In this document: positions 1 through 31,093 of the stretch, in pieces
Layout: every line of letters begins with the position of its first letter
How positions within the stretch are numbered: position 1 is the first letter of the stretch
Origin: Cyanobacteriota bacterium
GTDB taxonomy: Bacteria; Cyanobacteriota; Cyanobacteriia; Cyanobacteriales; Microcystaceae
DNA: 32,000 nt
Direction: 5' to 3'
Assembly: GCA_046304295.1 (NCBI GenBank)
Contig: JBKCES010000311.1
Coordinates: 969-32,968 of the forward strand
Program-made: the position numbers and the translations under genes
Notes under the pieces: generated by a model
The model's database searches: none
The model's input: the letters and a program-made list of their open reading frames with translations, nothing else
What the model was told of the DNA's origin: nothing

Positions 1-3
1 CGG

Positions 4-720
4 GTGACGGAATTTAGCCAATCCGCCCAGCGTTTGCCCACCGCCGCCGAACTAGAAAAAATCGCTACGGATCTAGGCATCGACCCGGAGGAAATCCAAG
101 CGGCCCAACGGGAGGCCCAGGCCCACTACACTCGGGCTCAGGGCTACTTACGCCTGCGTCATTGGGAAGACGCCATTACCGAACTTCAGGACGCCGTCGC
201 CCTAAATCCCGCTAACTCGGAGATGTTGCTTGCCTTAGCCCAGGCTCATTTGGGACGTTGGCGCCTGTCCCACCGTCGGGAGGATGCCGAAGAATTGCGC
301 CTTCGGGCCCGTCAGTGCCTAGCCCTCGACCCGAACTCAGATCCGGCGCTGGAATTACTGGGACTCTTTAGCAAATTACGCCAACGGCGCCGTCAAGGAT
401 TTTGGGCTCTCGTTCTCTTTGTCGGCGCGGTTTTAACCGGCGGCTTGGGCTATTTATTGATTCAAGGACGCTTACCCTATGTGCTTCAAAGTCGGGCGGA
501 GTTGGAGCAACTGGAGCGCCGTCTGGAAGGAGAAACCCGGCGCTTGCGGGAGGATCAAAGCCGCTTGCAGGAGGAAATTTTGGCTCGACAACGGGCGGAA
601 GACGCCGCTTTGAATCTGCGGTTAATCCAACTTCAAAACCGACTTCAAAGCTTAGAAAAAGAATTGGAAACCCTCAAAAAGCCCGAGCCATCCCCATCTC
701 CGGCGCCGCCCCAAGGTTAG
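4..720 (+). CDS. hypothetical TPR-like / single-TM / coiled-coil protein (GTG start at the window edge, may be 5' truncated)
   Basis: 238-aa ORF. The N-terminal half has TPR-like helices (YTRAQGYLRLRHWEDAITELQDAVALNP). There is one hydrophobic segment (FWALVLFVGAVLTGGLGYLLI), followed by a charged heptad-like region and a Pro-rich tail. Motif density is host-like. Confidence 0.6.
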   Translation: MTEFSQSAQRLPTAAELEKIATDLGIDPEEIQAAQREAQAHYTRAQGYLRLRHWEDAITELQDAVALNPANSEMLLALAQAHLGRWRLSHRREDAEELRLRARQCLALDPNSDPALELLGLFSKLRQRRRQGFWALVLFVGAVLTGGLGYLLIQGRLPYVLQSRAELEQLERRLEGETRRLREDQSRLQEEILARQRAEDAALNLRLIQLQNRLQSLEKELETLKKPEPSPSPAPPQG

Positions 721-764
721 GGCTATTCCCTCGGGTCGGTGGGTCACCAAGGGTCGCATTAAGT

Positions 765-2342
765 TTAGCTTTTAGCGACTGTTTCTTTTGCCCCTCCTAT
801 GGTGCCTAAATTTAAAAACACTATTTTCTCTTGCCAGGCGAAGGTTTCCGTATCGAGATTTACCAGAAAGGGCGACTCCTCGGCACCGAAAGCTTCAAAA
901 TTTTCAACCTGTTGGCGTAATAGCGCCGCGGTGGCGTCGGAAATATCGCCCCGGCGCTGGTTGAGGCGCTCCGTTAGGGTGGGCAGGCTGGCCTGGCAGT
1001 GCAGAAAGATCAGGGGTAGGTGATGGGTTTGGCAAAACTTAAGGATCGTTTGTCGCTCCACCCGGCGGTCGTATTTGGCGTCGAGAATCACCCGCCAGCC
1101 CTGACAAGCTAACGCTAACCCCCAATTTTGTAAATATTGGTAAGTTTGTTGAGTTCGTTCTGGGGTGTAAAGGTCGGCGCCGCCCTGGGCGGTTAAGGGC
1201 AGGCCAGCTAACTGCTTACGAATCGCGTCGGAACGGAGGTGGAGAGCGCCGATCTGGGGTGCGAGGTAACGGGCGACGGTGCTTTTGCCCGCCCCCGATA
1301 ATCCTGAGAGTAAAATAACTTCTCCCTCCTGGGGTTGGGCGTAGCCCCAGGCTTGACGGTAATAGTTTTGGGCGGTTTCTAAGGCGGTTTCTTTTTCTCG
1401 GGGGGAAATTTGCGGATCATCCAGCAAGAAAGAGGTCACCTTAGCCCGGACGTAGGCTTGACGACTGAGATAAAAAGGCAACAAAGAAACGCCCTCCCAA
1501 TCCCCCGTTTGCTCTAGGTAAGCGTTGAGAAAAATCGTCCCCAAATCCCGGCGCTCTTTGGCGTCCAGATCCATGACGGTAAAGGCGACATCGTACATGA
1601 CGTCCACAAAACGGAAGGGTTCGTTAAACTCAATCCGGTCAAACAGTTGTAGTTTGCCTTGCCAGTAACAAATATTTTGTAAATGGAGATCGCCGTGACA
1701 TTCCCGGATTTTCCCCGCCTCAATCCGGCGCTGGAAGCGGTCTCGATGCTGACGGAGGAAGGCTTCGTCAAAGGCTTTTGTTTCTGCGTATTGACTTTGA
1801 GTCTGGGCGGCACCGATATATTTCTCTGTGGCTTTGAAATTATCCATAATCGCGTCTTGAATCTTCTCGACTTGCCCAAAACTCTGGATATAGGTGTCGG
1901 TGCGGGTTTGGGCGTGAAACTCCGCCACGGTTAGCCCCAATTCCCGGATCAATTCCGGGGTTAATTGCCCCGCTTTAAACAGATTCACGAATAAACAGGA
2001 CTGGGGAAACTGGCGCATTCTTAGGGCGTATTCCACCAAGGTTTCCTGGGGTTGATTCACCCAAAGGTTCTCCTCGCCGTCTTGATAGATGGGAACAACC
2101 GCTTCATAAATATCCGGAGCAATGGGTTGATTGAGCGCCAATTCCTGCTCTAGGTAAAATTTGCGTTTCTCTAGGGTGGAAAAATCCAGAAAGCCGAAAT
2201 CCACCGGTTTTTTCACTTTATAGGCATAATCTCCCGTTAAGAAAACCGCCGAGCAATGGGTTTGCAGGACTTCAATCGGTGGCTTTACGGCGTGGGGATA
2301 GACCTGAGCGTTCTGAAGTTGAGCGATTAAATTGGTAAGCAT
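765..2342 (-). CDS. bifunctional phosphotransferase: APH-like kinase domain fused to a P-loop (AAA_33-type) kinase
   Basis: 525-aa ORF. The N-terminal part has an aminoglycoside-phosphotransferase-like catalytic loop (HGDLHLQNI). The C-terminal part has a Walker A motif (LSGLSGAGKST). This architecture is common in cyanobacteria. Confidence 0.75.
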   Translation of the reverse strand: MLTNLIAQLQNAQVYPHAVKPPIEVLQTHCSAVFLTGDYAYKVKKPVDFGFLDFSTLEKRKFYLEQELALNQPIAPDIYEAVVPIYQDGEENLWVNQPQETLVEYALRMRQFPQSCLFVNLFKAGQLTPELIRELGLTVAEFHAQTRTDTYIQSFGQVEKIQDAIMDNFKATEKYIGAAQTQSQYAETKAFDEAFLRQHRDRFQRRIEAGKIRECHGDLHLQNICYWQGKLQLFDRIEFNEPFRFVDVMYDVAFTVMDLDAKERRDLGTIFLNAYLEQTGDWEGVSLLPFYLSRQAYVRAKVTSFLLDDPQISPREKETALETAQNYYRQAWGYAQPQEGEVILLSGLSGAGKSTVARYLAPQIGALHLRSDAIRKQLAGLPLTAQGGADLYTPERTQQTYQYLQNWGLALACQGWRVILDAKYDRRVERQTILKFCQTHHLPLIFLHCQASLPTLTERLNQRRGDISDATAALLRQQVENFEAFGAEESPFLVNLDTETFAWQEKIVFLNLGTIGGAKETVAKS

Positions 2343-2349
2343 TCGCGAC

Positions 2350-3540
2350 TTATCCTTGGTTGAAACGGTAAAGCAAGCCCAAACCCACGGTGAAACCGAT
2401 TAAATTCGGCGCCCAAGCCGCCAGCGCCGGGGACAGAAGCTCCGCCATGCCCAAACTGCCCGCCGCAAACCCCACCAGGTAGTAAGCGAAAACAATAAAA
2501 ACGCTCAAGCCCAACCCTGTGGCCCGACTTAGGCGCTGGGGACGGGCGCCGACGGCCATACCTACCAGACCAAAGACGACGCAGACGAAGGGAAAGGCGG
2601 CTTTTTGCTCGGTGCGGACTTGGAAAAAATTCAGTTTTTTACGATCCCCGATTAAGCGGAGGATATCCATATAGGCCCTCGCCTCCTGAATATTCATTTC
2701 GTAGGGATCCCGGCCCTGAAGGGCGAAATCAAAGGCGGATTTGGGGAGTTCCACCAGTCGGGCCTGAAAGGGTTCCGATTCCTGATAGGAGGCGTCTTTT
2801 TTCAAGGGATAAACCGCACCTTCAAAAAAATCCCAACCCCGGCGCTGGGGGTTCCAGGCCGCTTGGTCGGAAATAATAATTTTATTGAGGCGGGAGCCAG
2901 ACCACTGTAAAACGGTCAGCTCCTCCATGGTTTTACCGTCGAAGCGCTCAGCGTAGATTAACCGTTTTAATCGTCTCTCGGTTTTCCCCCCGGCTATTTT
3001 CACCTCTTCAAATTCCGGGTAAAAGATATCTCGGTTCTGCCAAAAGGGATGCTCTTCCTGAATGGAATCCACCAAAATCGCCGTGGCTCGGTAGTTGGCC
3101 GCCGGGACAACCCACTCGCCGACACCGTAGGTTAAGCCTGTGGCCACTAGACTTAAACACACCACGGGAACCGCTAAGCGAAATAAGCCGGCACCGCAGG
3201 CCCGGAGCGCCACCAATTCGCTATCTCCCCCCAAACGCCCAAAGGTAATTAAGGCGCTGAGGAGAACGGCGATAGGCAGAGCGTAGGCCAAAAACTCCGG
3301 CACTTTGAGTAGGAGGATTTCCAGCGCCTGCTCTAGGGGTAAATTTTTTTCGACGATTTTATTGCCTAAATCCGAGAGGTAACCGATGGCCACCCCTAAA
3401 CTAGCCACCAAACCGACGCTAAATAAAAACGGGGGAACCAACTGCCCCGCCAAATAGCGGTCCATCAGGGGCAGGGAGAGCCAACGACCTAAACGGGGGA
3501 GACGGAGACGGCTCGGCGCGGTCCAATACATAGCAAACAA
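2350..3540 (-). CDS. LptF/LptG (YjgP/YjgQ) family permease
   Basis: Multi-TM ORF with the family-typical N-terminus MDRYLAGQLVPPFLFSVGL. The true start is probably that Met at 3465 rather than 3540. It has a periplasmic middle domain and C-terminal TM helices. Confidence 0.8.
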   Translation of the reverse strand: MFAMYWTAPSRLRLPRLGRWLSLPLMDRYLAGQLVPPFLFSVGLVASLGVAIGYLSDLGNKIVEKNLPLEQALEILLLKVPEFLAYALPIAVLLSALITFGRLGGDSELVALRACGAGLFRLAVPVVCLSLVATGLTYGVGEWVVPAANYRATAILVDSIQEEHPFWQNRDIFYPEFEEVKIAGGKTERRLKRLIYAERFDGKTMEELTVLQWSGSRLNKIIISDQAAWNPQRRGWDFFEGAVYPLKKDASYQESEPFQARLVELPKSAFDFALQGRDPYEMNIQEARAYMDILRLIGDRKKLNFFQVRTEQKAAFPFVCVVFGLVGMAVGARPQRLSRATGLGLSVFIVFAYYLVGFAAGSLGMAELLSPALAAWAPNLIGFTVGLGLLYRFNQG

Positions 3541-3610
3541 TTCACCCCAAAAGAAAGCCGACTACCGCCCCTAGGGACGAGTCGGCTGGGTTCCCCGGTT
3601 CCAGGGCTTC

Positions 3611-3746
3611 GGTGTACACAGATCTGTCTTAAAGACTCAGTTTTGGGTTCGATCCCCCTAAATCCCCCTTTACACGGGGGACTTTGAAAAGTCTTCCCCC
3701 CTTTCAAAGGGGGGCTAGGGGGGATCGTGACACTTGTGTGTACACC
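3611..3746. repeat. MITE-like palindromic small dispersed repeat
   Basis: Terminal inverted repeats ggtgtacaca (3611-3620) and tgtgtacacc (3737-3746). Inner arms gatccccctaaatccccc and ggggctaggggggatc are near-complementary. A 35-nt core (3654-3688) recurs at 21640-21674 with 33/35 identity. Confidence 0.55.
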
Positions 3747-3768
3747 GTTAAGGTTCCAGGGAGAGAAA

Positions 3769-3888
3769 TTAGCTTTCCCGGCTGAGGACTTCGTTCAACT
3801 GCCGGAGGGCGGCGGCGCCGATATTGATGGCCGCCCAAGTGGCGGCGATCAGCAGGGGACTCAGGACAATTACAATACGCCAATCCAT
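3769..3888 (-). CDS. psbY: photosystem II protein Y (39 aa), absent from the supplied ORF track
   Basis: My reverse-strand translation gives MDWRIVIVLSPLLIAATWAAINIGAAALRQLNEVLSRES. The MDWR start, single TM helix and WAAINIG motif match cyanobacterial PsbY as I remember it. A GAGGGA Shine-Dalgarno lies just upstream (reverse strand), and the stop is TAA at 3771-3769. Confidence 0.7.
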   Translation of the reverse strand: MDWRIVIVLSPLLIAATWAAINIGAAALRQLNEVLSRES

Positions 3889-3983
3889 AGGATTATTCCC
3901 TCGAATTTGAATCTAAAATGTTAAGTTTTCTAAATTATCCCTCATATATAGCCTAAACTCGCTCTCTTGGGAATCGGCGCCGG

Positions 3984-4490
3984 CTATTTTGCCTGGGCGT
4001 GGGCGTGGGCCAGACGGGCGTAGCGTTGGGCGTGGCGGATTAAGTCCTGGGCCTGCTCCTCGGTTACCGGACGAATCACCCGCCCCGGCGCCCCCAAAGC
4101 GAGGGAACGGGGAGGGATCGATTTAGTAATCACCGAGCCGGCACCGATAATACTGCCGGCGCCGATCCGAACCCTGTCTAAAATAATGGCACCCATGCCG
4201 ATTAAACAACCCTCTTCTAGATAGGCGCCGTGGATCACCGCCCGGTGCCCCACCGTGACCCAGCGCTCTAAAACTGTGGGCGTCCCCGGATCGCCGTGGA
4301 TCACTGCTCCGTCCTGGACATTGGTTTCTTCGCCGATCTCAATCCGCTCCACATCTCCCCGGACTACGGCGCTGTACCAAATACTGGAACCGGGGCCCAG
4401 GGTTACTCGGCCGATCACCGTGGCGTTGGGCGCCACAAAGGCTGCGGCGCCGCGGTCGGGGAGGTCTAAATAAGCGGGAAAGTCTTCCAT
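3984..4490 (-). CDS. gamma-class carbonic anhydrase-like / left-handed beta-helix (hexapeptide repeat) protein
   Basis: 168-aa ORF with hexapeptide repeats and His residues typical of the gamma-CA/YrdA family (VIHGD, GHRAVIHGA, IGMGAIIL). Confidence 0.8.
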   Translation of the reverse strand: MEDFPAYLDLPDRGAAAFVAPNATVIGRVTLGPGSSIWYSAVVRGDVERIEIGEETNVQDGAVIHGDPGTPTVLERWVTVGHRAVIHGAYLEEGCLIGMGAIILDRVRIGAGSIIGAGSVITKSIPPRSLALGAPGRVIRPVTEEQAQDLIRHAQRYARLAHAHAQAK

Positions 4491-4613
4491 GATTGCTGAG
4501 GGGAGCCGAACTCCGCCAGATAGCCCTCTATATCTTAAAATAAATTAACACTTCCCCCAAACGGCCCCTAATCCCTATTGGGGGTTATTTTGATCGCTAA
4601 ACTCCGAGTAACT

Positions 4614-6701
4614 ATGAAAGACCTCTCTCTCTACCGCAATATTGGCATTTTTGCCCACGTTGATGCGGGAAAAACCACCACGACAGAAAGAATTCTTAAA
4701 CTAACGGGTAAAATTCATAAAATCGGGGAAGTCCACGAAGGCGCCGCCACCACGGACTTCATGGAGCAAGAGCAGGAGCGGGGCATTACCATTCAATCCG
4801 CCGCCACCAGTTGTTTTTGGCGGGGACACCAGTTCAATATTATCGACACCCCGGGCCACGTTGACTTCACCATCGAAGTTTATCGCTCCCTCAAGGTGCT
4901 GGACGGCGGCGTCGGCGTTTTTTGCGGCTCCGGCGGGGTGGAACCCCAGTCGGAAACCAACTGGCGCTACGCCAACGACTCCAAGGTTGCTCGTTTGATC
5001 TATGTTAATAAGCTCGACCGCACTGGCGCCGATTTTTACCGGGTGATTAAACAGGTGGAAAACGTCCTCGGCGCTAAGCCCCTAGTGATGGTTCTGCCCA
5101 TCGGTTTTGAAGACCAATTTGTGGGGGTGGTGGATCTGCTGACCCGCAAGGCTTGGATTTGGGACGACTCCGGGGAGCCGGAGAACTATGTGATTGAAGA
5201 CGTTCCCGCAGACATGGCGGATAAGGTGGAGGAATACCGGGAAAAATTAATCGAATTGGCGGTGGAGCAGGACGATGAGTTGATGGAAAAATACCTGGAA
5301 GGGGAAGAACTCTCCATCGACGAGATCAAACGCTGTGTCCGCAAAGGCACTCGGGATCTGGCCTTTTTCCCCACCTACTGCGGCTCTTCCTTCAAAAATA
5401 AAGGGGTGCAATTAGTGCTGGACGCCGTGGTGGATTATCTGCCGAACCCCACGGAAGTCAATCCTCAACCGGAAGTGGATCTGGAAGGGCACGAGACCGG
5501 CACCTTCGCCATTGTGGACCCGGAAAAACCCCTGCGGGCCCTGGCCTTCAAAATTATGGACGACCGCTTCGGCGCCCTCACCTTTACCCGGATTTACTCC
5601 GGCAAAATCGCTAAAGGGGACACGGTGCTCAACACCGCCACCGGCAAAACGGAACGGATTGGGCGTCTGGTGGAAATGCACGCCGACTCCCGGGAGGAAA
5701 TTGAATCCGCCCAGGCGGGGGACATTGTAGCCATTGTGGGGATGAAGAACGTCCAAACCGGTCACACCCTCTGCGACCCCAAAAATCCCGCCACCCTAGA
5801 GCCGATGGTCTTCCCCGAGCCGGTGATCTCTATCGCCATCGCGCCGAAGAAAAAAGGGATGGACGAAAAAATGGGTATGGCACTGAGCAAAATGGTGCAG
5901 GAAGACCCCTCCTTCCATGTGGAAACCGACGAAGAGAGCGGCGAAACCATCATTAAAGGGATGGGAGAATTGCACCTTGATATTAAGGTCGATATCCTCA
6001 AGCGCACCCACGGGGTGGAAGTGGAGGTGGGCAAACCCCAGGTGGCCTACCGGGAATCCATCACCAAGGTCATCAACGACGGCTATGTCCACAAGAAACA
6101 ATCCGGCGGTTCTGGTCAGTACGCCAAGATCGACTACACCATCGAACCCGGCGAACCCGGCACCGGCTTCCAGTTTGAGTCCAAGGTCACCGGCGGCAAC
6201 GTGCCTCGGGAATATTGGCCAGCGGTGCAAAAGGGCTTTGAGCGGAGCATCGTTAAAGGTCTGCTGGCGGGCTATCCCTGCGTCGATCTGAAGGTCACTC
6301 TCACCGACGGCGGTTTCCACCCGGTGGACTCCTCCGCTATCGCCTTTGAAATCGCCGCCCAGGCGGCCTACCGGCAAACGGTGCCCAAGGCTGGCCCCCA
6401 ACTTCTAGAGCCAATTATGAACGTGGACGTCTTTACCCCCGACGACTACATGGGCGACGTCATCGGCGACCTGAACCGGCGCCGGGGCATGATCAAATCC
6501 CAGGAAACCGGCGCTATCGGTGCTCGCATTAAAGCAGATGTGCCCCTGAGCGAAATGTTTGGCTACATCGGCGATCTGCGCACCATGACCTCTGGGCGGG
6601 GCCAGTTCTCCATGAGCTTTTCCCACTACTCCCCCTGTCCCGGCAACGTGGCGGAGCAGGTGATCAAGGAAGCCAAGGAGCGCCAAGCCGCCAAGGCTTA
6701 G
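4614..6701 (+). CDS. elongation factor G paralogue (EF-G-like translational GTPase)
   Basis: G1 [10 protein letters not shown]3 DTPGHVDF and G4 NKLD motifs, followed by EF-G domains II-V. The likely start is ATG 4614 ([12 protein letters not shown]), not the TTG at 4578. The gene is not in a str-operon context, so it is probably a second EF-G copy. Confidence 0.9.
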
Positions 6702-6711
6702 ATCCCAATCT

Positions 6712-6745
6712 GTAGGGTGTGTTACACTTTGCTAACGCATCCTAC
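6712..6745 (+). terminator. stem-loop just after the EF-G stop (possible terminator or repeat hairpin)
   Basis: gtagggtgtg (6712-6721) pairs with cgcatcctac (6736-6745). This gives 10 bp including 2 G-U pairs and a 14-nt loop. No U-tract follows, so a terminator role is uncertain. Confidence 0.3.
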
Positions 6746-6825
6746 GATTTAAACCCATGTTGCGGGGACGTAACTTAAGGTTTGTCTAGAGCAAAAGTAA
6801 TGAACGCTCCCCGCCTCGACATCTC

Positions 6826-7545
6826 TTAATCTAATCCTAGTTCCCGCAAACGGCGCCGGTCTTGAAAAATTGCGTCCGGGGAATCGGCCTGCGCCACCCG
6901 TCCCCGATGCATAACGATGACCCAATCGGCCCACTTTTGCGCAAAGGGAAGGTCGTGAGTGGCCAGGAGCAGGGTGGTTCCCGCCTGGTGAATTTGCTCC
7001 AATAGTTCTCTCAGACGCCGAGTCTGGCCCGGATCGAGGTAGGCGGTGGGTTCGTCCAATAGGAGCAAGGTCGGCTCCAAAATAAAGCTATCGGCGATGG
7101 CCAGGCGCCGTTTTTGCCCCAAACTGAGGTAATTGACCGGAAAATCCGCCACTTCTTCTAGGTTAAAAGCCCTTAAGGTCGCCTCCACCCGGTGCTGGAT
7201 TTCCCCCGGTGGTAGTCCCAAATTACACAGCCCGTAGGAGAGATCCTCTTCCACAGTCCCTCCCACCAGTTGCTCGTCGGGGTTTTGAAACACTAAAGCC
7301 ACTTCTTGACGGAGACGATACAGCGCCGGCTGGTCGTAGGCCAGGGGTTGATTTTGCCAGTAAACAGCACCGGCACAGGGTCGATACAGACCGTTCGCTA
7401 GACGTAAGAGGGTGGTTTTGCCACAGCCGTTTTGGCCAATGAGGGCGTAGCGTCCACCGGCTTCGAGGCGGAGAGAAAGGCCCTCTAGCACCGGCTGGGG
7501 ATGGCCGGGATAACGGTAACTGACCGCCTCAAAGCGCATTAACAT
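6826..7545 (-). CDS. cbiO: ECF/cobalt-type ABC transporter ATP-binding protein
   Basis: Walker A GQNGCGKTT, signature LSLGQKRR, Walker B LLLLDEP. The probable start is MLMRFEAV at 7545, overlapping the cbiQ stop. The longer track ORF to 7623 is unlikely. Confidence 0.8.
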   Translation of the reverse strand: MLMRFEAVSYRYPGHPQPVLEGLSLRLEAGGRYALIGQNGCGKTTLLRLANGLYRPCAGAVYWQNQPLAYDQPALYRLRQEVALVFQNPDEQLVGGTVEEDLSYGLCNLGLPPGEIQHRVEATLRAFNLEEVADFPVNYLSLGQKRRLAIADSFILEPTLLLLDEPTAYLDPGQTRRLRELLEQIHQAGTTLLLATHDLPFAQKWADWVIVMHRGRVAQADSPDAIFQDRRRLRELGLD

Positions 7546-8345
7546 GGGCGCGCCCAGTAATACCAGCCCGTTAAACCTAACAAAAAGAAATAACCCCCCA
7601 CCGCTTCGGCGCTGTAACGCCAACTGGGTTGATGATGGCGCCGGCTCCAGAATTTAAGTTCTCCGGTGTACCCCCTAGCGGCGAGACCCAGGGAAATTTC
7701 CCGGTAGTGATTCAGGGCCCGTTGCAGAAGTTGCCCCGTTAAGAGACTCAAACTATTGAGGCCTGGGCGCCAGGCGCCGTAGCCGCAACGGGACTGCTGG
7801 GCCGTGAGCAATTCCTGCGCCGTAGCCCTGAGAACCGCAATCAATCGATACATCAGCAGAATTAATTCTGTTAGTAGCGGGGGACAACCCCAACGACTCA
7901 GAAGACGAATAATTTCCCAGAAGGGAACCGTCAGCAGAAGAAAGTAGAGACAGGAGGTGAGCGCCAGGGAGCGAAAAACAATCCCTCGACTTTGCTCCAG
8001 TCCCTGTTGGCTGAGGTAGAGATAAACAGGCCCTATCGGCGCTCCCCAGAGAACGTCGCTCCGAAAGGTCGCCAGTTGGTCGGCCCGGCCGGCGCCGATG
8101 ATCCAGGCGGGCAGTCCCAAGAGTAAAAACCCTAGGGGGAGGGAGAGGAGGCGCAGATAAATCCGAGGAGAAATTTGGGCGTATTGAACGACCCAGACAA
8201 AAAGCCAGAGGCTAATTAAAGCCTGGACGGGAATCGGCGCTCCGTAGCCCAAAAGAAAAAGCGCCGCCGCAAACCCCAGTTTATGTTCTGGGGGCAGGGA
8301 GCGCAGTCCATTCCTTTGGGCTAGGGCGTCAAGGGAATAACCCAT
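7539..8345 (-). CDS. cbiQ: ECF/cobalt transporter transmembrane (T) component
   Basis: 268-aa polytopic membrane ORF directly upstream of, and overlapping, the ATPase gene. Length and hydrophobicity pattern are CbiQ-like. Confidence 0.7.
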   Translation of the reverse strand: MGYSLDALAQRNGLRSLPPEHKLGFAAALFLLGYGAPIPVQALISLWLFVWVVQYAQISPRIYLRLLSLPLGFLLLGLPAWIIGAGRADQLATFRSDVLWGAPIGPVYLYLSQQGLEQSRGIVFRSLALTSCLYFLLLTVPFWEIIRLLSRWGCPPLLTELILLMYRLIAVLRATAQELLTAQQSRCGYGAWRPGLNSLSLLTGQLLQRALNHYREISLGLAARGYTGELKFWSRRHHQPSWRYSAEAVGGYFFLLGLTGWYYWARPC

Positions 8346-8348
8346 TAT

Positions 8349-21708: not shown

Positions 21709-21758
21709 TAACGCTTGTATACGCGACAGATCCCAAGTTGAGGAATGGGTTCTCAGAC

Positions 21759-23096: not shown

Positions 23097-23175
23097 AGAC
23101 TTTAAGTCACCTCTAGGGGGTTGTAGAGTAAAAAATAACCAGCGTGAAGAGTGAGTCGAAACCGCTAAGAGTTTG

Positions 23176-23218: not shown

Positions 23219-23348
23219 AAATCGGCGTTCATGCCCCCTCGGAAGCCTAGTTTTGTCAGTAAAATCACCATAGATAGGCGGGAAATGGCTATACGTTAGA
23301 GTCGCCACCTAACGGAGAGCAGTTCTAGAGCTTTAAGCGCCGGGGGGA

Positions 23349-25016
23349 TTAAGGCTTGGATTGAGTGGGTTGAAACTGGACAATCTTCTCTCCCGAACTA
23401 CGGTAGAGATCCAAGGGTAAATTAGCCTGATGGCTGATCTGTTGTAAAGACCGCTCTAGCTCCTGAATATGGCGGAGGATCTGGGCCTGCTCCTCTTGTC
23501 CTCCCTCCTGGACTCCCCGCTGTAGTCGTTGGAGATAATCTGATTTGAGGACGATTTTAATTCTTTTGGACTCAATTTTATAATCACAACGACGGGGAGA
23601 GCCTACACAAAGGATTTTTAGATTCCGCTGGAGGGACTGGGCCCGGAGTGCCGCTTTTAAATTTTCTTGGCTCTGCTTTTTGGCTAATTGATAACGGGTG
23701 AGGAGAGTTTGAGTCTGGGGACTGAGCCAGCTTTGGGAAGGAATTTGCTTGAGGCTCTCTAGGGCGCTCTGCCAATAGCGAAGGGCTTCTGAGAATTGAC
23801 GACGTTTCCCGGCGCTTTCAGCTTTGTTGGCTAAAACTCGGGCTTGTTCAAGGGTCTTCTGGGCGCGGGTTTCTAAGGATTGTTTGGCTTGCAGTTGTTT
23901 AAACTCGGATTGTTCTAGAGTCAGTTGTTGTTGAGCGAGGGCGTAGAGGTCGGACTCGGGCGGAATCTGCTCTAGGAGTTGCAAACCTTGGCTCCAAAGC
24001 ACTAAAGCCTGTTTAAGTTCTCGAAGCGTTTTGGCTCCTCTAGCCTTGAGTTTCGCCTCTGTGAGCAATTGATTGCCCCGTTGACGCTCTAGGTTGGCTT
24101 GCTGTTGGGCCAAAACCTGCTGGTCAATCTGATGGAGTTGGCGCTGATAATCTTGGGTTTGGGCCATCACTAGGGATTGAAGGGGGCTTTGGGGAGAAAT
24201 TTGCGCCAATAAACGCAGACTCCTATGCCAAAGTTCGCGACTTTGGCGGCTATCGCTCTGACTCTGGGCTTCCTGGGCCAAGCGAGACGCTTCCGCAAAC
24301 AAGTTGAGTTCCCGCCGCCGCGTTTGGTAGGAGTCTAGAAGGGCCTGACTCCGCTGAAAGTGGGGAGACCAAGGGGGAATCGCTTTAAGGTGGCTTAAGG
24401 TGTCTAGCTCTGTCTCTGAAGCGAGTAAGGCCTCAAACTCCGGTGGCAGGCCGAAGCTCTGTAATTGGGCTTGGGCCTGGAGCAATTCGGGACAAGAACT
24501 GAGAACACAGGGACGACTCAGGCCATAACCGAGACTGAGAACAATGCCAGCGCCTAGCCCCCATAGCAGTGGTCGTTGGTGAAATCGGAGCCAGCTCTGA
24601 GCAGACTCCCGCCAATGGTTGGTTAAGACTCTGTCCCAAAGCGACTTGGGCGACTCCCGAGGGGAGAGAACTCCGGAGAACGGAACACTAAAATCCGGCG
24701 CCGGGCTGATCTGGGGCTGAATGGCGCTGGCGTCGCCGTCCCGTAGAGCCAACTCTTCATCTAGGACTAAAAAGATTTGGGGTCTGTAGAGCGCCGTCAA
24801 GCCGTCTTGGGCTAAACAATCCCGAGCTGAGGCGAAAATCGCTGTGCTTTCTAAGAAAGGAGTCGTTTCAAAGTAGAGGGCAATGAGGAGGGTTTCCCCG
24901 TCCAGGCGACAGTGAACGCTCTGGGGAGTCAGGGCAATTTGGTCTCCTTGAAGATGTCTGAGGAGTCTCTTTTCCAGTCGGCCTAAATCGAAGGGAATCA
25001 GTGCCGTGTTGACCAT
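23349..25016 (-). CDS. hypothetical membrane-anchored protein with Q-rich internal repeats
   Basis: 555-aa ORF with a soluble N-terminal domain of about 100 aa, one TM segment (LLWGLGAGIVLSLGYGL, about aa 149-166), then 3-4 repeats of about 65-75 aa. The repeats share W..[SA]L.LL.QIP..S.L...AQ..L..Y. Confidence 0.7.
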   Translation of the reverse strand: MVNTALIPFDLGRLEKRLLRHLQGDQIALTPQSVHCRLDGETLLIALYFETTPFLESTAIFASARDCLAQDGLTALYRPQIFLVLDEELALRDGDASAIQPQISPAPDFSVPFSGVLSPRESPKSLWDRVLTNHWRESAQSWLRFHQRPLLWGLGAGIVLSLGYGLSRPCVLSSCPELLQAQAQLQSFGLPPEFEALLASETELDTLSHLKAIPPWSPHFQRSQALLDSYQTRRRELNLFAEASRLAQEAQSQSDSRQSRELWHRSLRLLAQISPQSPLQSLVMAQTQDYQRQLHQIDQQVLAQQQANLERQRGNQLLTEAKLKARGAKTLRELKQALVLWSQGLQLLEQIPPESDLYALAQQQLTLEQSEFKQLQAKQSLETRAQKTLEQARVLANKAESAGKRRQFSEALRYWQSALESLKQIPSQSWLSPQTQTLLTRYQLAKKQSQENLKAALRAQSLQRNLKILCVGSPRRCDYKIESKRIKIVLKSDYLQRLQRGVQEGGQEEQAQILRHIQELERSLQQISHQANLPLDLYRSSGEKIVQFQPTQSKP

Positions 25017-25124
25017 GCCATTGCCGGGGTAGATTAGAAAGGAAAGAGAGGCTAGGTTCTTAGAGAGTCATTATACTGGAGGCTCCGACCGGATAAATCC
25101 CATGGGGTTTCTGTTTTTAAAACC

Positions 25125-25730
25125 ATGTCTGTTGTTGATTCCCAGTCTTTGATTCAAGGCGTTCTAGAGGGAAAAGTGGTGAGTTTTCCCACCGATACCG
25201 TTCCGGCGCTGGCGGCCCTCCCGGAGCGCTCTGGAGAGATTTATCGGCTCAAACGGCGCTCCGCCGACAAGCCTCTGATTCTCATGGCCGCAGAGCCAAA
25301 GGCTTTTCAACCCTACTTAGGCGGCGCCGGGGAAGACCGAGCCCAGTGGCGACGGATCATGGATCAAGTGTGGCCCGGAGCCGTCACCTTAGTCTTGCCA
25401 GCCTCTCCGGCGGTTCCCCCGGCGCTGAATCCTCGTCAGGACGGCACCATTGGTTTACGGATTCCCGCTTGTCCCCCGGCGTTAGCCATTCTCGCCCAAA
25501 CCGGCCCCTTAGCCACTACCAGCGCCAATCTCTCCGGCGCCGCCCCCCTGCAAACCCTAGCGGAGATTGCCCAAGTCTTCCCCGAAGCTCTTGTGTTGAA
25601 GCTAGAGCCTCCTAGTCTGGTTGTCGGAAGCGGCCAACCCTCCACCGTCGCTCAGTGGCAAGCCGGACAGTGGAGCCTTTTACGCCAAGGGCAGATGCCG
25701 TTCCCCCCGGCGGACGACGACAAAGTTTAG
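25125..25730 (+). CDS. tsaC: L-threonylcarbamoyladenylate synthase (YrdC/Sua5 family, short form)
   Basis: FPTDTVPALAA, KRRSADKPLILM, WPGAVTLVL, IGLRIP and TTSANLSG are the conserved YrdC-domain blocks. Confidence 0.85.
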   Translation: MSVVDSQSLIQGVLEGKVVSFPTDTVPALAALPERSGEIYRLKRRSADKPLILMAAEPKAFQPYLGGAGEDRAQWRRIMDQVWPGAVTLVLPASPAVPPALNPRQDGTIGLRIPACPPALAILAQTGPLATTSANLSGAAPLQTLAEIAQVFPEALVLKLEPPSLVVGSGQPSTVAQWQAGQWSLLRQGQMPFPPADDDKV

Positions 25731-25782
25731 CCCCGGTTCCATAAACCGAGAAACGAAGCGCTAAAATTGATGCACAATTTTG

Positions 25783-25794
25783 CCCCCCCCCCCC
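25783..25794 (+). repeat. C12 homopolymer 10 nt upstream of the GTG start of the Wzz/BY-kinase-like gene
   Basis: Twelve consecutive C residues read directly from the sequence (tgcccccccc ccccttaaga). Confidence 0.9.
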
Positions 25795-25804
25795 TTAAGA
25801 ACCT

Positions 25805-28165
25805 GTGTCCGACAGTTATTTGGAAGCTCCCCTTGAGGAACTACAAGCCAGCGCCGAATCTCCCCAGCGGGTGCCGCCTCGTTTGCGGCTCATGGTTCGC
25901 ACCCTCCTCCGCAAATCTCCGTTTATCTTCGGCTTCACGGCGCTGAGCGCTTCGGCCAGTTTGGTCTTCGCTTTTTTCCAGCCCTTTACCTACAAAGGCA
26001 ATTTTTACCTCTTGGTGGAACCCATCACCGCCGCGGCTCGTTTGAGCGATCCTTCCACCATCGCCCGAGGCGGAGGCACCTTCAGGAACGAGCTGACGGA
26101 GCTAGACTATCCCACCAACTTGGCCTTTCTCCAGGGACCGGGGATGGCACAACAAATCGCCCAGGATGTTTTTGACAAAAAGGTTTTAAAGAAACGCTCC
26201 CTACCCGCCATTATCAAGGAGGTGCGAGACAATCTAAAAGTGGAATGGATTCGAGATAGACGGGGGTCGGACGCCACCAAAATTTTCGCCGTCACCTACA
26301 GCGCCCCCAGCGCCCGGGAGGTAGAAGCGGTGTTAACCGTGGCCGCGGACAGCTTTGTCAAATACAGCACGAAAGACCGAGAAAGCAGTCTTAAGGCCGG
26401 AGTTGAGTTTATCGACGACCAGCTCCCTAACCTCCAGCGCAACCTCGCCGCCCTCAAGGCCCAGCAAAAAGAATTGCGACAGCGCTACGCCCTTGTCAAT
26501 CCCAGCGCCAAACAGGAGACGTTGCTGACGGAAATTAGCACCCTCTCCGGCCAGCGTCTAAGCTTGGTGCAACAAATCAAGTCCCAACAGGAAATTATTA
26601 AAAAACTACAAGCAGAACTGAAAGTCTCTGAGGAAGAAGCGGTTTCCGCCTCCATTATCAATCAAGATCAAGAGCGCCTAAGTTTAATCAAGCGATTACA
26701 GGAACTCGACGCGCAGATCGCCTCCGTCAGCGCCGTTTATACGGATAACAGCAACCAAATGCTGAATCTGAGGGAGCAGAGGAACAACCTCCAGGCGCTG
26801 TTAGACAAGCGCAACCAAAAATTAGCCGGTCAGGTGCGAATCCCTATCGATCCCAACTCTAGCGCCGCTGATTTACAAGACCCCACTCGTCTGGATCTGA
26901 TTAAGCAATTAACTGCGGCCAGAACCCAACTGGAAAGTCTCCAATCCCAGCTGCCTCCCTTGGAGACGAGAATTCGGCAACTAGAGGCGGCGGCGGCGGA
27001 TTTGCCCAAAGTGATCAATCAATACGAAGCTATTGAAAGAGAGATTACGCTCAATGAGCAAATCGTTGATAAATTTCTCCTGCAACGGGAAACGCTGAAG
27101 GTGGAGGCGTCCCAAGAATTGCCTTGGCAGATTATTTCCAAGCCCCAGGTGCCCACGGATGAACAGGGTAACCCCATCGGCGAGGCGCCGCCCCGGACTC
27201 GGTTGCTCGTGGCGGGTTTAGGGGGAGGCTTGTTGTTCTCGACTCTGCTGGCGCTGTTGTGGGAAAAAATGCGCAATGTTTTTTATTCTTCGACAGACGC
27301 GCAAGATCTTCTAGGAATTCCCTTAGTCGGCGAAGTTTATCGGCACTTGGCGCCCCGCACCGCTCTCATGCCCCTACGCCAGTCCCCCGCCCTAGAAGCG
27401 GCTAAAACAGCTCTGCTTTTAGAAAAGTCCCCTGGCCAGGCCCTACTGGAGGAAGGGGAAAAATCGATGGCGCCCGCCGCCGCGACGGCCCTGTTAGTCG
27501 AGAAACCGGCCATCGAGAATGAGCCTGGAGCCGTCAACGGCGGCCCCCCTTCGCCCTCCCCTCTACCAGCGCCGGGCTTTGCGTCCATTCCGGGGGTTTT
27601 TGAAGATATCTACGCCGAGCTTTCCTTCTTTTACCGCTCTCCGGCTCTCCGTTCCCTAGTGATTTCCGCCATTCAACCCGGCGACGGTCAATCCACCCTG
27701 ATTTTGAATTTGGCCATCGCCGCCGCCAGTCAAGGCCGTAAGGTCTTAGTCGTGGATCTGCAACCCCAGGGCGTGGGTATTACCCAATGGCTCGGGGGAA
27801 GCCGCCAACCGGGAATCAAAAATCTGCTAGCGGAAGAAGCGGCGCTGGAGTCGGTATTACAAACCTTCCCGGCCCATCCCAATCTTCATCTCTTGAGCAC
27901 AGGACAGGAGACTCCCCTCTCCCCCCTCTGGTCGCCAGACTTCCAGTATCTCATGGCGGAGTTTCAGGCTAGCTATGATTTGGTGCTCTACGACCTCCCC
28001 TCTTTCTTCGTCACCACCGACCTCTATTTTATCGCCAGCCACACCGACGGTCTTATCTTTGCCGTGAGTCTGCAAAAAACGCCCCTCAATAAGACTGCAC
28101 AGGCTGTTAAAAAAGCTCAGGAACTGCGATTACCGGTGATTGGGCTGATGACCAATCTAGCTTAA
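25805..28165 (+). CDS. polysaccharide chain-length determinant (Wzz/GumC-like) fused to a degenerate BY-kinase-like P-loop domain
   Basis: 786 aa: an N-terminal TM segment, a long coiled-coil periplasmic region, a second TM (LLVAGLGGGLLFSTLLALLW), then a C-terminal ParA/BY-kinase-like domain. Its Walker A reads PGDGQST, with Gln where Lys is expected. There is a Walker B-like YDLVLYDLPS and no C-terminal Tyr cluster. The start is uncertain: GTG 25805 or ATG 25892. Confidence 0.75.
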   Translation: MSDSYLEAPLEELQASAESPQRVPPRLRLMVRTLLRKSPFIFGFTALSASASLVFAFFQPFTYKGNFYLLVEPITAAARLSDPSTIARGGGTFRNELTELDYPTNLAFLQGPGMAQQIAQDVFDKKVLKKRSLPAIIKEVRDNLKVEWIRDRRGSDATKIFAVTYSAPSAREVEAVLTVAADSFVKYSTKDRESSLKAGVEFIDDQLPNLQRNLAALKAQQKELRQRYALVNPSAKQETLLTEISTLSGQRLSLVQQIKSQQEIIKKLQAELKVSEEEAVSASIINQDQERLSLIKRLQELDAQIASVSAVYTDNSNQMLNLREQRNNLQALLDKRNQKLAGQVRIPIDPNSSAADLQDPTRLDLIKQLTAARTQLESLQSQLPPLETRIRQLEAAAADLPKVINQYEAIEREITLNEQIVDKFLLQRETLKVEASQELPWQIISKPQVPTDEQGNPIGEAPPRTRLLVAGLGGGLLFSTLLALLWEKMRNVFYSSTDAQDLLGIPLVGEVYRHLAPRTALMPLRQSPALEAAKTALLLEKSPGQALLEEGEKSMAPAAATALLVEKPAIENEPGAVNGGPPSPSPLPAPGFASIPGVFEDIYAELSFFYRSPALRSLVISAIQPGDGQSTLILNLAIAAASQGRKVLVVDLQPQGVGITQWLGGSRQPGIKNLLAEEAALESVLQTFPAHPNLHLLSTGQETPLSPLWSPDFQYLMAEFQASYDLVLYDLPSFFVTTDLYFIASHTDGLIFAVSLQKTPLNKTAQAVKKAQELRLPVIGLMTNLA

Positions 28166-30529
28166 AAAGGCCACGGTCACCCCGGCGCCGCCCTCCTCCC
28201 GGGGCGCCGTTTCGTAGCGGCTTACTTGGGGGTGGCGGTCTAAAAATTCCCGCACCCCCTCCCGCAATTTGCCGGTGCCCTTGCCGTGGATGATCCAAAG
28301 GGCGCCAAAGTCATTGGCCTGACGAATCGCTTCTTCCAACAGGGATTCCGCCGCTTCTACCCGACTGCCCCGTAGATCGATAGTATTTTTTTCGCTCCGC
28401 AGACGGATCGGCGCCTTTGGGGTTTGGGGGAGAGGAGCCATCGGTGCCGGTTTGGGGGGCGGCGGCTCCGCTTTTTTTCCATCCAGGGATTCAATGTCCG
28501 CTAGAGGCAGGGTCATTTTTAACAGCCCCAGTTTGACCGTCACTTCCCCCGACTCCAGACTCGTTACCTCCGCCGTTTGCCCCAGATTGGCGAGGCGCAC
28601 CCGTTCCCCGATTTGGGGTAAATAGCCCTGGGGCACCGGTGCCGGTTTTTGGCTGTGTTGAATTTGGGCCAGGGCTTGGGTAGCTTGATGGGCATCTTGG
28701 GCCGTGGGGGTTCCCCGTTGCAGTTGCCGGATCACCTGGGCGATTTCCGCCTTGGCCTCCAGAATGGCCCGCTGGACTTCCTCCTCCTGTTGTTGTTTGA
28801 GTTCCCGTTCCCGCCGTTGCAAGCTCTCGGATTTCGCTAACAATTCCCGATGGAAAGCCTCGGTTTCCTGTAACAGGCGCCGGGCTTCCCCGGCTTTGCT
28901 CTCCTGCTCCCGGCGCTGTTCTTCCAGCCCGGCGATGACCTGGTTCACGTCTTCCCGCAGTCCCCCAAGGCGAACTCTTGCCTGCTCTAAAATCCCCTGG
29001 GGCAACCCCAGGCGCTGGGCGATGGCCAGGGCGTTGGAGCGCCCCGGAATGCCCCAGAGCAGACGGTAGGTGGGCGCTAGGGTTTGGTCGTCAAATTCCA
29101 CCGAGGCGTTTTCAAAGCGGGCATCCTGGTATTTCAGTGACTTCAGTTCGCCGTAGTGGGTGGTGGCCAGGGTTAACTGAGTCTTTTGGGCTAAGTCATT
29201 TAAGAGCGCAATGGCTAGGGCCGTGCCCTCCACCGGATCAGTGCCAGCGCCGACTTCGTCCAGCAAAACTAGGGCGGAGGCGTAGGGATCTGCGGGGGGA
29301 AGAGCGTCTAAAATGCGGCCAATTCTGCGGATATGACCGGAAAAAGTGGATAAACTCTGCTCCAGGGATTGCTCGTCGCCAATATCGGCTAGGATCTCGG
29401 CGAACCAAGGAATTTCCACCGGCTCCTTGGCGGGAAGATACAGTCCCGCTTTGGCCATCAGCGCCGCTAAGCCTAGGGTTTTAAGGGTGGCGGTTTTGCC
29501 GCCGGTGTTGGGGCCGGTGAGGGTGACGACCCGAATCTGAGGATCGATAGTCAAGCTAATGGGCACCACTTCGGCGCCGTCCTGGCGCCGGTTTTGCCAA
29601 ACGAGGAGGGGATGGCGCAACTGCCGCAGGGTAATGGCTTCCTGGGGAGAAATAAAGCGGGGGGGATTGGCGCCCAGCCAGAGGCTATAACGGAGGCAGG
29701 CGTTGGCCAAATCCAGTTGGGTGACGACGGTTAGCAGATCGTCTAAATCCTCCCGGCGCTCTCCGACTTTTTGGCTCAGGGCCCGAAGAATGATCTCCTC
29801 CTCGCGGATTTCCTGACGACGGCTCTGGCGCAGTTGATTGCCCAGGTCTAAAGTCCCCTTGGGTTCAATATATAAGGTGGCGCCAGTGCTGGAGCTATCC
29901 TGAACGACGCCGGGAATTTGCTCCTTGTGGGAGGCTTTCACCGCCAAGACGTAGCGGTCGCCCCGTTGGGTGATCACCGTTTCCTGGAGGGCGTTGCCCT
30001 GACGCTGGATAATAGTCTGGAGTTTTTGATAAATTTGCTCACGCAAGCGCCGGGATTGGCCCCGCAGTTCCCCCAATTTGGCGCTGGCCCGGTCGGCGAC
30101 CTGAGCGTCTTCCCCCAGGCAATGATGGATCTCCTGCTCTAAGTCCGGGTAGGTGCGCAGATCCGCCACCAGCGCCAGCAGGGTGGGCGTCTCCTCCTGC
30201 TCCTCGATCACCCGGCGGAGGCGCCGGGCGCCGGCGAGGGTCTGGGCGAGGTCCAGCAGTTCGGCGCCGGCTAACATCCCCCCCTTAGCGGCCCGCTCTA
30301 GGCTCTGCCGACAATCGGCGACGCCGGTAAATTTCCAGTTGGGGTTGAGGCTATGGCTCAGGCGCTCGACTTCTTGGGTTTGCCGTAGTTGCTCTTGGCT
30401 TTCCGCTAAGGTTGCGGGAATCGGCAAATTTTGGGCGTAGAGGCTACCCAGGGGCGTTTCTGTAAATTCCGCCACCTGTTGACAGAGACGGGGCCATTCC
30501 AGTAAGTCAAGGGTTTCGGATTGGATCAA
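28157..30529 (-). CDS. mutS2: endonuclease MutS2 (MutS domain plus C-terminal Smr)
   Basis: Walker A GPNTGGKT, the MutS ATPase core, a coiled-coil linker and an Smr domain (IDLRGSRVEAA...LWIIHGKGTGKLREGV). Confidence 0.92.
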   Translation of the reverse strand: MIQSETLDLLEWPRLCQQVAEFTETPLGSLYAQNLPIPATLAESQEQLRQTQEVERLSHSLNPNWKFTGVADCRQSLERAAKGGMLAGAELLDLAQTLAGARRLRRVIEEQEETPTLLALVADLRTYPDLEQEIHHCLGEDAQVADRASAKLGELRGQSRRLREQIYQKLQTIIQRQGNALQETVITQRGDRYVLAVKASHKEQIPGVVQDSSSTGATLYIEPKGTLDLGNQLRQSRRQEIREEEIILRALSQKVGERREDLDDLLTVVTQLDLANACLRYSLWLGANPPRFISPQEAITLRQLRHPLLVWQNRRQDGAEVVPISLTIDPQIRVVTLTGPNTGGKTATLKTLGLAALMAKAGLYLPAKEPVEIPWFAEILADIGDEQSLEQSLSTFSGHIRRIGRILDALPPADPYASALVLLDEVGAGTDPVEGTALAIALLNDLAQKTQLTLATTHYGELKSLKYQDARFENASVEFDDQTLAPTYRLLWGIPGRSNALAIAQRLGLPQGILEQARVRLGGLREDVNQVIAGLEEQRREQESKAGEARRLLQETEAFHRELLAKSESLQRRERELKQQQEEEVQRAILEAKAEIAQVIRQLQRGTPTAQDAHQATQALAQIQHSQKPAPVPQGYLPQIGERVRLANLGQTAEVTSLESGEVTVKLGLLKMTLPLADIESLDGKKAEPPPPKPAPMAPLPQTPKAPIRLRSEKNTIDLRGSRVEAAESLLEEAIRQANDFGALWIIHGKGTGKLREGVREFLDRHPQVSRYETAPREEGGAGVTVAFLS

Positions 30530-30577
30530 GGCTAGGGCAAGTCAGGGGGAATCAAAGTCGTTCCCATAGTAAAGGAT

Positions 30578-31093
30578 TCAGCCGATAGCTTGTTGTTGTT
30601 TCCCTCGTCTCTGGGCGAACCAAGACCGGAGCAAGTCCTGACACGCTTGTTCCCGAATGCCCCCAATCACTGGCAGGGAGTAATGGGAAGCCGCGCTCTG
30701 GGGAATAGTTAACACCGTTTGAATCGCACCCGCCTTCGGGTCGGCGGCGCCGTAAACCAGGAGACCCAAGCGCGCCTGTAACAAAGCACCGGCGCACATG
30801 GGACAAGGCTCCAGGGTAACGTAGAGTCGACAGGTTTCCAAATGCCAAGTTCCCAAAACCCGGCTCGCCTGTTCAAGCGCCAAAATTTCCGCATGGGCGA
30901 CAGGATTGCTGTCCCGTTGTTTGCGATTGGCCGCCTCAGCTAAAACCGTTCCTTCTTGGCTCACCACCACGGCACCTACCGGCACATCCCCCGCCGCTCC
31001 AGCTTCCTGAGCCAGTGTTAACGCACGATCGAGCCAACGATAATGGTCGGCGTTGGCCTGGGGGGTGAGGTAGGGAGCTAAGGTCGCCAGCAT
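30578..31093 (-). CDS. tadA: tRNA adenosine(34) deaminase
   Basis: CDA-fold zinc motifs HAEILAL and PCPMCAGAL, with a length typical of TadA. Confidence 0.9.
   Translation of the reverse strand: MLATLAPYLTPQANADHYRWLDRALTLAQEAGAAGDVPVGAVVVSQEGTVLAEAANRKQRDSNPVAHAEILALEQASRVLGTWHLETCRLYVTLEPCPMCAGALLQARLGLLVYGAADPKAGAIQTVLTIPQSAASHYSLPVIGGIREQACQDLLRSWFAQRRGKQQQAIG

Follow-up and report, generated by a model that had tools for sequence, protein, structure and literature searches.

Evidence for an alternate highly iterated palindrome built on the HaeII site, with matching predicted methylases, in an uncultured relative of Synechocystis

A 32,000-nucleotide stretch of cyanobacterial DNA (NCBI GenBank contig JBKCES010000311.1, positions 969 to 32,968; hereafter the window, meaning the whole of this stretch) is dense in the hexamer RGCGCY (R, purine; Y, pyrimidine), most visibly as the palindromic octamer CGGCGCCG, and is free of GCGATCGC, the highly iterated palindrome (HIP) known as HIP1. 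RGCGCY is the recognition sequence of HaeII, and the window encodes two predicted 5-methylcytosine (m5C) DNA methylases of the HaeII family, which we call M1 and M2, together with a homologue of the HaeII endonuclease. The abundance of the motif, its recurrence in unlinked DNA of close relatives and the predicted enzymes support the conclusion that this is a real and probably lineage-wide alternate HIP with a matching predicted methylase in the sense of Elhai (2015). The original prediction for this stretch had proposed as much, and none of the outcomes that it named as counting against the proposal was found. The word combines a density and a ratio of observed to expected copies (O/E) in the range of known HIPs with the absence of HIP1, a matching predicted methylase, and enrichment in all reading frames and in non-coding DNA.

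At 26 copies, CGGCGCCG outnumbers every other octamer of the window and is by far its top palindromic one, and the 13 commonest octamers (CGGCGCCG and the next twelve) share one overlapping core. Counts made by eye had given about 26 CGGCGCCG, about 21 CGGCGCTG, about 15 CAGCGCCG and no GCGATCGC; we count 26, 22, 15 and 0, with a single CGATCG, and the positions named for CGGCGCCG are all right, to which 29572, 30262 and 30745 are to be added. Base composition predicts 0.8 copies of CGGCGCCG, where roughly 1 had first been estimated at G and C of about 0.28 each; the true frequencies are slightly lower (0.264 and 0.268, for a GC content of 53%). The resulting O/E of 32 and the density of 0.81 per kb both lie within the HIP1 range, as had been claimed for the density; octamer palindromes of the HIP class have densities of about 0.3-2.7 per kb, and their O/E from base composition is well in excess of 16 (Elhai 2015; Xu et al. 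2018).

Stricter null models leave the excess in place. In 100 shuffles that preserve dinucleotides the octamer averages 1.25 +/- 1.25 copies and never exceeds 5, far short of the 26 observed. When synonymous codons are shuffled within each gene, so that proteins and per-gene codon usage are kept, 4.6 copies are expected in coding DNA against the 24 observed (5.3-fold, z = 10), and 4.2 copies of CGGCGCTG plus CAGCGCCG against 33 (z = 16). CGGCGCCG is still the top word under the dinucleotide- and codon-preserving nulls, and the doubt first expressed about a pure codon-usage artefact was well placed, since the enrichment survives the synonymous shuffle and extends to all frames and to non-coding DNA. 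Markov models of order at least 3 soak up much of the signal (a 3-fold excess is left at order 3), because the sub-words of the octamer are themselves enriched.

The palindromic octamer was originally taken as the unit. It is enriched, but perfect octamers make up just 26 of 182 sites, and the true unit is the degenerate HaeII site RGCGCY with C/G-biased flanks and a preference for at least one G:C at the degenerate position. The window holds 182 copies of RGCGCY versus 47.7 +/- 6.3 in dinucleotide shuffles, or one per approximately 176 bp (about 5.7 per kb), a 2.9-fold excess over the synonymous shuffle (z of about 17). RGCGCY is the context of 182 of the 238 GCGC tetramers (76%), where 25% would be expected, and GCGC outside that context is depleted, to 0.51 of expectation with one flank wrong and to 0.26 with both wrong; a Y at the R position is depleted about 4-fold. 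The instances are GGCGCC (64), GGCGCT (60), AGCGCC (50) and AGCGCT (8). Single-base variants of CGGCGCCG, counted by symmetric position from 1/8 inward, number 25, 43, 28 and 18, and the excess at positions 2 and 7 consists solely of R/Y transitions (G to A at 2, C to T at 7), so that the expectation of deviations at the outer positions, as in HIP1, did not hold. Outside the hexamer a C before and a G after are preferred, and a further C or G more weakly, giving CC-RGCGCY-GG.

RGCGCY is enriched in every reading frame (2.1-, 3.9- and 3.9-fold) and in host non-coding DNA (8 sites versus 2.1 from composition), and each resident gene has 2-14 sites per kb; the intergenic sites reported earlier at 3975, 9643, 10186 and 12843 are all real. 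Spacing between sites is near exponential, with a coefficient of variation (CV) of the gaps of 0.93, and neither periodicity nor a mod-3 preference was found in 32 kb. No such excess is seen for other GC-rich palindromes, which are either neutral or depleted. Measured against synonymous shuffles, GGWCC (0.13), GCWGC (0.07), CGCG (0.25) and CGATCG (0.11) are strongly avoided, as are CTGCAG, CAGCTG, GGATCC and GTGCAC, which implies several other restriction systems in the lineage; since other restriction sites are avoided in the same DNA, RGCGCY is treated in the opposite way. Words containing CTAG are over-represented in coding DNA (CTAGAG 3.2-fold, CCCTAG 2.8-fold, CTAG 1.49-fold), contrary to the deficit of CTAG that many bacteria typically have.

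The enrichment is not confined to the window. Across 40.7 kb of this genome RGCGCY keeps a uniform density, the 8.7 kb of flanking DNA, taken from the same metagenome contigs, having the same density and no HIP1. The enrichment recurs on unlinked contigs from four other samples that carry orthologues of M2 (92-94% identity; L086, L087, L174, L175), where 71-75% of GCGC lie in RGCGCY. In the DNA around these orthologues, with the methylase gene itself left out, 8/11, 24/31 and 12/17 GCGC tetramers lie in RGCGCY, again without HIP1. The contigs were found through M2, so that the association between methylase and motif is partly by construction. Pooling five loci of relatives (L086, L087, L173, L174, L175; about 14 kb) with this genome, we find no GCGATCGC in approximately 55 kb of lineage DNA.

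The source of the window is an uncultured cyanobacterium related to Synechocystis and Microcystaceae. The organism is absent from the GTDB representatives, among which the best match to its GyrA reaches 77% identity; in a larger protein collection it is 98% identical to a protein from SRR10063240, the same sample as one of the M2 orthologues, followed by an uncultured relative (87%), Synechocystis sp. LKSZ1 (85%), and then Microcystaceae, Snowella and Synechocystis. The 87% relative (L170-L172) is rich in HIP1 (0.8 per kb, often as GGCGATCGCC) and avoids RGCGCY, which makes up a fraction of 0.05 of its GCGC, with 1 site per 11 kb; among the relatives examined, the closest GyrA outside the sister genome therefore goes with the opposite motif state. 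The LKSZ1 locus (L169; AP031572.1, 1192362-1214938) has no HIP1 and is neutral for RGCGCY. GGCC occurs there at 10.7 per kb, GGCCCTGG/CCAGGGCC 16 times in 22.6 kb, and GGCCTGGG and CAGGGCCA also at 13-16 copies in the same 22.6 kb, and these GGCC-based words may be a third hyperabundant word family; a 2026 preprint (10.64898/2026.06.24.733823) has remarked on the loss of HIP1 in LKSZ1. Three states thus occur within one Synechocystis-level clade (GyrA 85-87%): HIP1 with RGCGCY avoided, GGCC words in LKSZ1, and RGCGCY. In gyrA alone the counts of RGCGCY and CGATCG are 13/0 in the window, 15/0 in the sister, 0/5 in the HIP1-rich relative and 1/0 in LKSZ1, and at 40 other cyanobacterial gyrA loci the RGCGCY fraction of GCGC is 0-0.42. 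The enrichment of RGCGCY appears, from these comparisons, to be lineage-specific and derived.

The original prediction placed the candidate enzymes in the window itself, and two HaeII/HhaI-like m5C methylases and an apparently intact R.HaeII homologue are indeed encoded there (Table 1). A HaeII-type restriction-modification (R-M) arrangement is present, the PF09554 R gene adjoining an m5C methylase gene and both being full length. The closest solved structure to M2 is M.HhaI (GCGC; E = 1e-65), aligned over its full length including the target-recognition region, and M.HhaI is also the closest solved structure for M1; the two methylases are 85% identical in amino acids and 80% in nucleotides. 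We infer a specificity for RGCGCY for M1 and M2 from homology and from the avoidance of this sequence in other hosts of the family. M2, a resident, orphan-type enzyme of the lineage, is the best candidate for the motif-linked methylase. It has a GC content of 0.46, a GC content at third codon positions (GC3) of 0.44, and 5 RGCGCY sites versus 0.6 expected. All 5 are kept across three orthologues, including those of L086 and L087, that differ by 8-10% in DNA, and none is present in 8 outgroup genes of the M2 family.

Elsewhere, enzymes of this kind go with the reverse pattern. We compared 80 metagenome loci whose methylases are 54-77% identical to M2. A homologue of R.HaeII lies immediately downstream in most of those longer than 4 kb, and the R.HaeII of the window aligns along its whole length, at 52-66% identity, with the R genes that follow most methylases sharing 65-77% identity with M2. 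In about 50 other hosts of HaeII-family methylases RGCGCY is avoided or neutral, its fraction of GCGC being 0-0.42, and none is enriched. The counts reach 1/112 (L113), 0/112 (L115), 0/77 (L156) and 0/48 (L105), with 0/18 in Calothrix sp. MO_167.B12 (L176), and six of the non-enriched loci are evidently cyanobacterial in that they carry HIP1. Because it is exactly RGCGCY that these hosts avoid, the assignment of specificity to the family is indirectly supported; the same comparison shows that enrichment is the reverse of what normally follows from having the enzyme.

The way in which sites are gained and lost can be followed in gyrA and in the sister genome. Most gyrA sites lie on conserved residues (Gly-Ala, Ala-Ala-Leu, Thr-Ala-Leu, Arg-Arg-Leu), where they are made by synonymous choice, and few lie at variable residues. 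At shared Thr/Val-Ala-Leu codons the window reads CGGCGCTGG, whereas LKSZ1 reads its own favoured word, CGGCCCTGG. Differences from the outgroups often include transversions (e.g., GCC to GCG in Ala codons) or 2-4 changes; at 24% nucleotide divergence the outgroups are too distant for gains and losses to be polarised. M2 itself appears to have been horizontally acquired and to have gained 5 sites while its GC3 is just 0.44, the newer island beside it having gained none.

The sister comparison covers one 3.2-kb orthologous stretch of 92.9% nucleotide identity, too few data to separate selection from mutational drive. Across it 14 of 16 RGCGCY sites of the window persist versus 4 of 8 other GCGC, the value for GC-rich control hexamers being 0.73. 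Three of the persisting sites changed solely between C and T at the Y position and are still HaeII sites, and seven sites are unique to one of the two genomes. Expressed as shared over union, RGCGCY scores 14/21 versus 4/15 for other GCGC (Fisher p = 0.04, from this single stretch). Turnover of sites therefore occurs, with a tendency for them to remain members of the RGCGCY set.

The enzymes lie between gyrA and a group of urea-transporter genes, in the order relic, M1, R.HaeII, PIN toxin with antitoxin, a DUF2283 gene, and M2. The relic of 106 amino acids is host-like (GC 0.58, 3 RGCGCY), and low-GC DNA starts directly behind its stop codon; insertion of the HaeII cassette probably cut this gene short, and the relic marks the left edge of the island. 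M1, R.HaeII and the PIN gene have a GC content of 0.33-0.41 and a GC3 of 0.23-0.36, versus a GC3 of 0.54-0.75 in host genes, and RGCGCY is at its compositional level in the island (2 versus 0.9 expected). Given this low GC content and the compositional frequency of RGCGCY, the M1/R.HaeII island looks like a recent arrival. The PIN pair is cargo of the island, outside the motif system.

Table 1. Features of the window, in window coordinates.
Feature	Position	Strand	Remarks
Host DNA, left block	1..13292	.	hyperabundant RGCGCY
Perfect CGGCGCCG, left block	385, 701, 1175, 3813, 3975, 4157, 4445, 6477, 6851, 8090, 9197, 11473, 12634, 13064		
Truncated N-terminal relic, restriction-enzyme- or helicase-type, 106 aa	12972..13292	+	weak HSDR_N match
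Low-GC island, GC 0.38, with M1, R.HaeII and PIN pair	13293..16140	.	
M1, m5C DNA methylase, predicted partner of R.HaeII	13355..14308	+	PF00145, E = 1e-93, full length; same protein present in an NCBI MAG entry ('Cyanobacteriota bacterium')
R.HaeII-family endonuclease	14322..15374	+	PF09554 RE_HaeII, E = 2.6e-149, profile positions 1-338/338
PIN-domain toxin, VapC-like	15482..15898	-	PF01850
81-aa open reading frame, likely antitoxin of PIN toxin	15895-16140		
Host DNA, right block	16141..31093	.	hyperabundant RGCGCY
M2, second HaeII-family m5C methylase	16496..17413	+	PF00145, E = 4e-91
Perfect CGGCGCCG, right block	18391, 19005, 22127, 22595, 22998, 24696, 25322, 25535, 28183, 29572, 30262, 30745		

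The orthologues of M2 (L086, 1217-2191; L087, 55-966; L174, 741-1652) adjoin rpmE/rpsI/rplM or lpxA, and no R gene was found downstream of them; since their neighbourhoods differ, the gene for the orphan methylase has changed place in the course of the lineage's history. In L086 the orthologue follows an AAA_15/AAA_21 ATPase gene and a gene of 217 amino acids of unknown function, which suggests a defence-island context. In the sister genome synteny with the window (L173, 3834-4324, versus window position 12866 onward) stops just after gyrA and also just short of a 150-amino-acid gene upstream of gyrA. No R-M island follows gyrA in the sister, which makes the island, and the placement of M2 here, peculiar to the window genome. 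The JGI contig Ga0568990_000430 (L001) stops within M2, its locus end of 16782 corresponding to window position of about 17049; the paralogue pair M1/M2 most likely broke the assembly at this point.

The joint explanation that we consider best, and moderately probable, is that in a lineage without HIP1 the accumulation of RGCGCY is linked to methylation by the orphan enzyme M2, and that the HaeII cassette arrived later. M2 would keep all RGCGCY sites methylated, and changes that create or keep a methylatable site would be preferentially fixed, whether through a methylation-directed repair ratchet of the kind proposed by Elhai or through selection for a dense methylated self-mark, as has been proposed for HIP1 in transformation and recombination. 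Most of the build-up of sites would come from the choice among synonymous codons. With RGCGCY already methylated throughout the genome, the HaeII endonuclease could then have been acquired without killing the cell, and the complete cassette probably came after the motif and M2. The causal role of methylation in this sequence of events is something we infer. We also entertain, as a possible but rather doubtful extension, that the identity of a HIP is set by the orphan m5C methylase of the lineage and is quickly swappable; a HaeII-type methylase would here have been domesticated as a replacement for DmtC, and methylated RGCGCY would serve as a self-mark for uptake, recombination or repair, as methylated HIP1 may do.

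Several observations weigh against a link between methylation and motif of this simple form. AGCGCT is a HaeII site and yet is not enriched (O/E 0.9). The preference for flanking bases exceeds the known HaeII recognition sequence, CGGC making up 33% of half-sites, and the two half-sites are not independent: CA-CA combinations number 0, and CA-dA combinations 2 versus 13 expected. A-type halves pair with CGGC halves, and CAGC|GCTG is never seen. In RGCGCY each of the two cytosines is already preceded by a G, so that Elhai's G-meC rule leaves the favouring of G at the R position unexplained; the lack of enrichment of AGCGCT was not predicted, and that rule is therefore incomplete. Other hosts of the enzyme avoid the sequence or stay neutral, so that the methylase alone is insufficient. 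Divergence inside the window sites is about 8% (tallied by hand), close to the background of about 7%, and the evidence for purifying selection is correspondingly weak. The data, finally, come from parts of genomes: approximately 41 kb (40.7 kb) of this one and about 14 kb of relatives. An altered specificity of M2 (e.g., for GGCGCY only) was considered as a source of the AGCGCT deficit and is unlikely, the target-recognition segment being near-identical in M1 and M2.

Other explanations can be set against the same evidence. It is very improbable that the pattern is an artefact, whether of base composition, of the usage of codons, of amino-acid content (Gly-Ala, Ala-Leu, Gln-Arg) or of copies of a dispersed repeat. 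Common codon pairs (GGC GCC, GCG CTG, CAG CGC) do occur at many sites, and high-order Markov expectations come near the observed counts, but shuffles that preserve protein and codons give RGCGCY a z-score of about 17 and the octamers z-scores of 10-16, every frame and the non-coding DNA are enriched, and orthologues in relatives encode the same amino acids without the sites. A dispersed repeat element was rejected separately, there being no conservation or information past +/-2 bases of the hexamer. Another candidate is over-repair. In E. coli, Dcm and Vsr inflate CCWGG by over-repair of near-cognate sequences; here a Vsr-like nuclease, acting in very-short-patch repair, would turn T:G back to C:G after deamination of m5C to T and so drive RGTGCY and RGCGTY to RGCGCY. 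The enriched word is the target predicted for the m5C methylases, and some sister-specific differences at sites are CpG transitions, at 9809 (GGCACC/GGCGCC), 11568 (GGCGTT/GGCGCT) and 12327 (GACGCT/GGCGCT). The source words, however, are not depleted (RGTGCY plus RGCACY, O/E 1.25; RGCGTY plus RACGCY, O/E 1.38), and transversions or 2-4 changes separate many sites from the outgroup state. Within 12.8-17.7 kb of the window no vsr-like open reading frame was found near the methylases. With its T-containing products not depleted and no vsr gene near the methylases, we rejected over-repair as the driver; we give it little credence.

Selection unrelated to methylation is also unlikely, if less so. 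Under this explanation the repeated word, with consensus CGGCGCY, would serve some protein of the nucleoid, of uptake or of recombination as a binding site or structural element, and the methylases and the R-M system would be merely tolerated or retained. Such a site would account for the strongest half-site, CGGC, reaching past the HaeII site, for the lack of enrichment of AGCGCT, and for the preferential pairing of weak halves with strong ones, as expected of a binding-energy threshold; the presence of the methylase elsewhere, moreover, never gives enrichment. Against it stand the exact match to the R/Y degeneracy of the enzyme, with Y at the R position about 4-fold depleted, the near-exponential spacing (CV 0.93), and the signature on 4/4 unlinked contigs with M2 orthologues (L086, L087, L174, L175), contigs that were found via M2. 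Each alternate HIP described so far, in addition, has a matching methylase (PMC4390886). A polar motif resembling Chi was tried and rejected, the asymmetric variants having no bias of strand or transcription orientation (60 versus 50, p = 0.39).

For about 30 years the function and origin of HIP1 have resisted explanation, and the best clue has come from rare genomes that lack HIP1 and carry another GC-rich word with a matching methylase. The lineage described here appears to be an independent and clean example of an alternate HIP, in which the enriched set reproduces a known degenerate recognition sequence, while the same enzyme family goes with avoidance in other hosts. Since near relatives carry different words, the switch of motif looks recent, and the added value of the system lies in the three-state contrast among near relatives. 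It also makes over-repair of the Vsr type unlikely as a driver, and one HaeII site per 176 bp beside an apparently intact HaeII endonuclease gene would be an extreme test of methylation fidelity. If the identity of a HIP is indeed set by a methylase and swappable, its origin becomes accessible to study by comparison and experiment.

Alternate HIPs with matching methylases are already known (GGCGCC, rCCGGy, GCsGC, GGGATCCC and CAGGCCTG). In a literature search we found neither CGGCGCCG nor RGCGCY described as a HIP of cyanobacteria, and likewise neither a HaeII-family enzyme in such a role nor this lineage. The RGCGCY motif, the HaeII enzyme family and the lineage are all absent from the cases described by Elhai (PMC4390886). 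One close parallel is Calothrix PCC 7103, in which GGCGCC is the alternate HIP and GrCGyC methylases are present, no enzyme specific for GCGC or GGCGCC having been recognised (Elhai 2015; PMC4390886). The two cases share a GC-only word centred on GCGC, the loss of HIP1, a depletion of CGATCG, and two methylases able, by prediction in the present case, to modify the word. They differ in that Calothrix uses GGCGCC alone, whereas GGCGCC, GGCGCT and AGCGCC with C/G flanks are used here, and in that the enzymes here are HaeII/HhaI-like and accompanied by a cognate restriction enzyme, in a unicellular relative of Synechocystis with 53% GC.

The rCCGGy/DmtD system of Oscillatoria PCC 10802 (Elhai 2015) is likewise a degenerate hexamer that matches an m5C methylase in a genome low in HIP1, and there too enrichment extends to three of the four instances and leaves out the one with A...T. 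In that system, however, G at the r position fits the G-meC rule, whereas both cytosines of RGCGCY already follow a G. HIP1 itself (GCGATCGC, with DmtC/DmtA) resembles the present motif in the density of the perfect octamer (0.8 per kb), in an O/E for which 32 is in range, in its occurrence in all frames and in spacers, and in its orphan m5C methylase. It differs in consisting of a methylase site with a fixed G/C flank, where the core here is a degenerate hexamer, in that its deviations fall at positions 1/8 and not at 2/7, and in a periodicity of which we detect none in 32 kb. The HaeII R-M systems of other bacteria, finally, share the arrangement seen here, with M followed by R at a distance of about 15-100 bp and a protein identity of 52-77%, but RGCGCY makes up 0-0.42 of the GCGC in those hosts and 0.76 in this one, an effect of the opposite sign.

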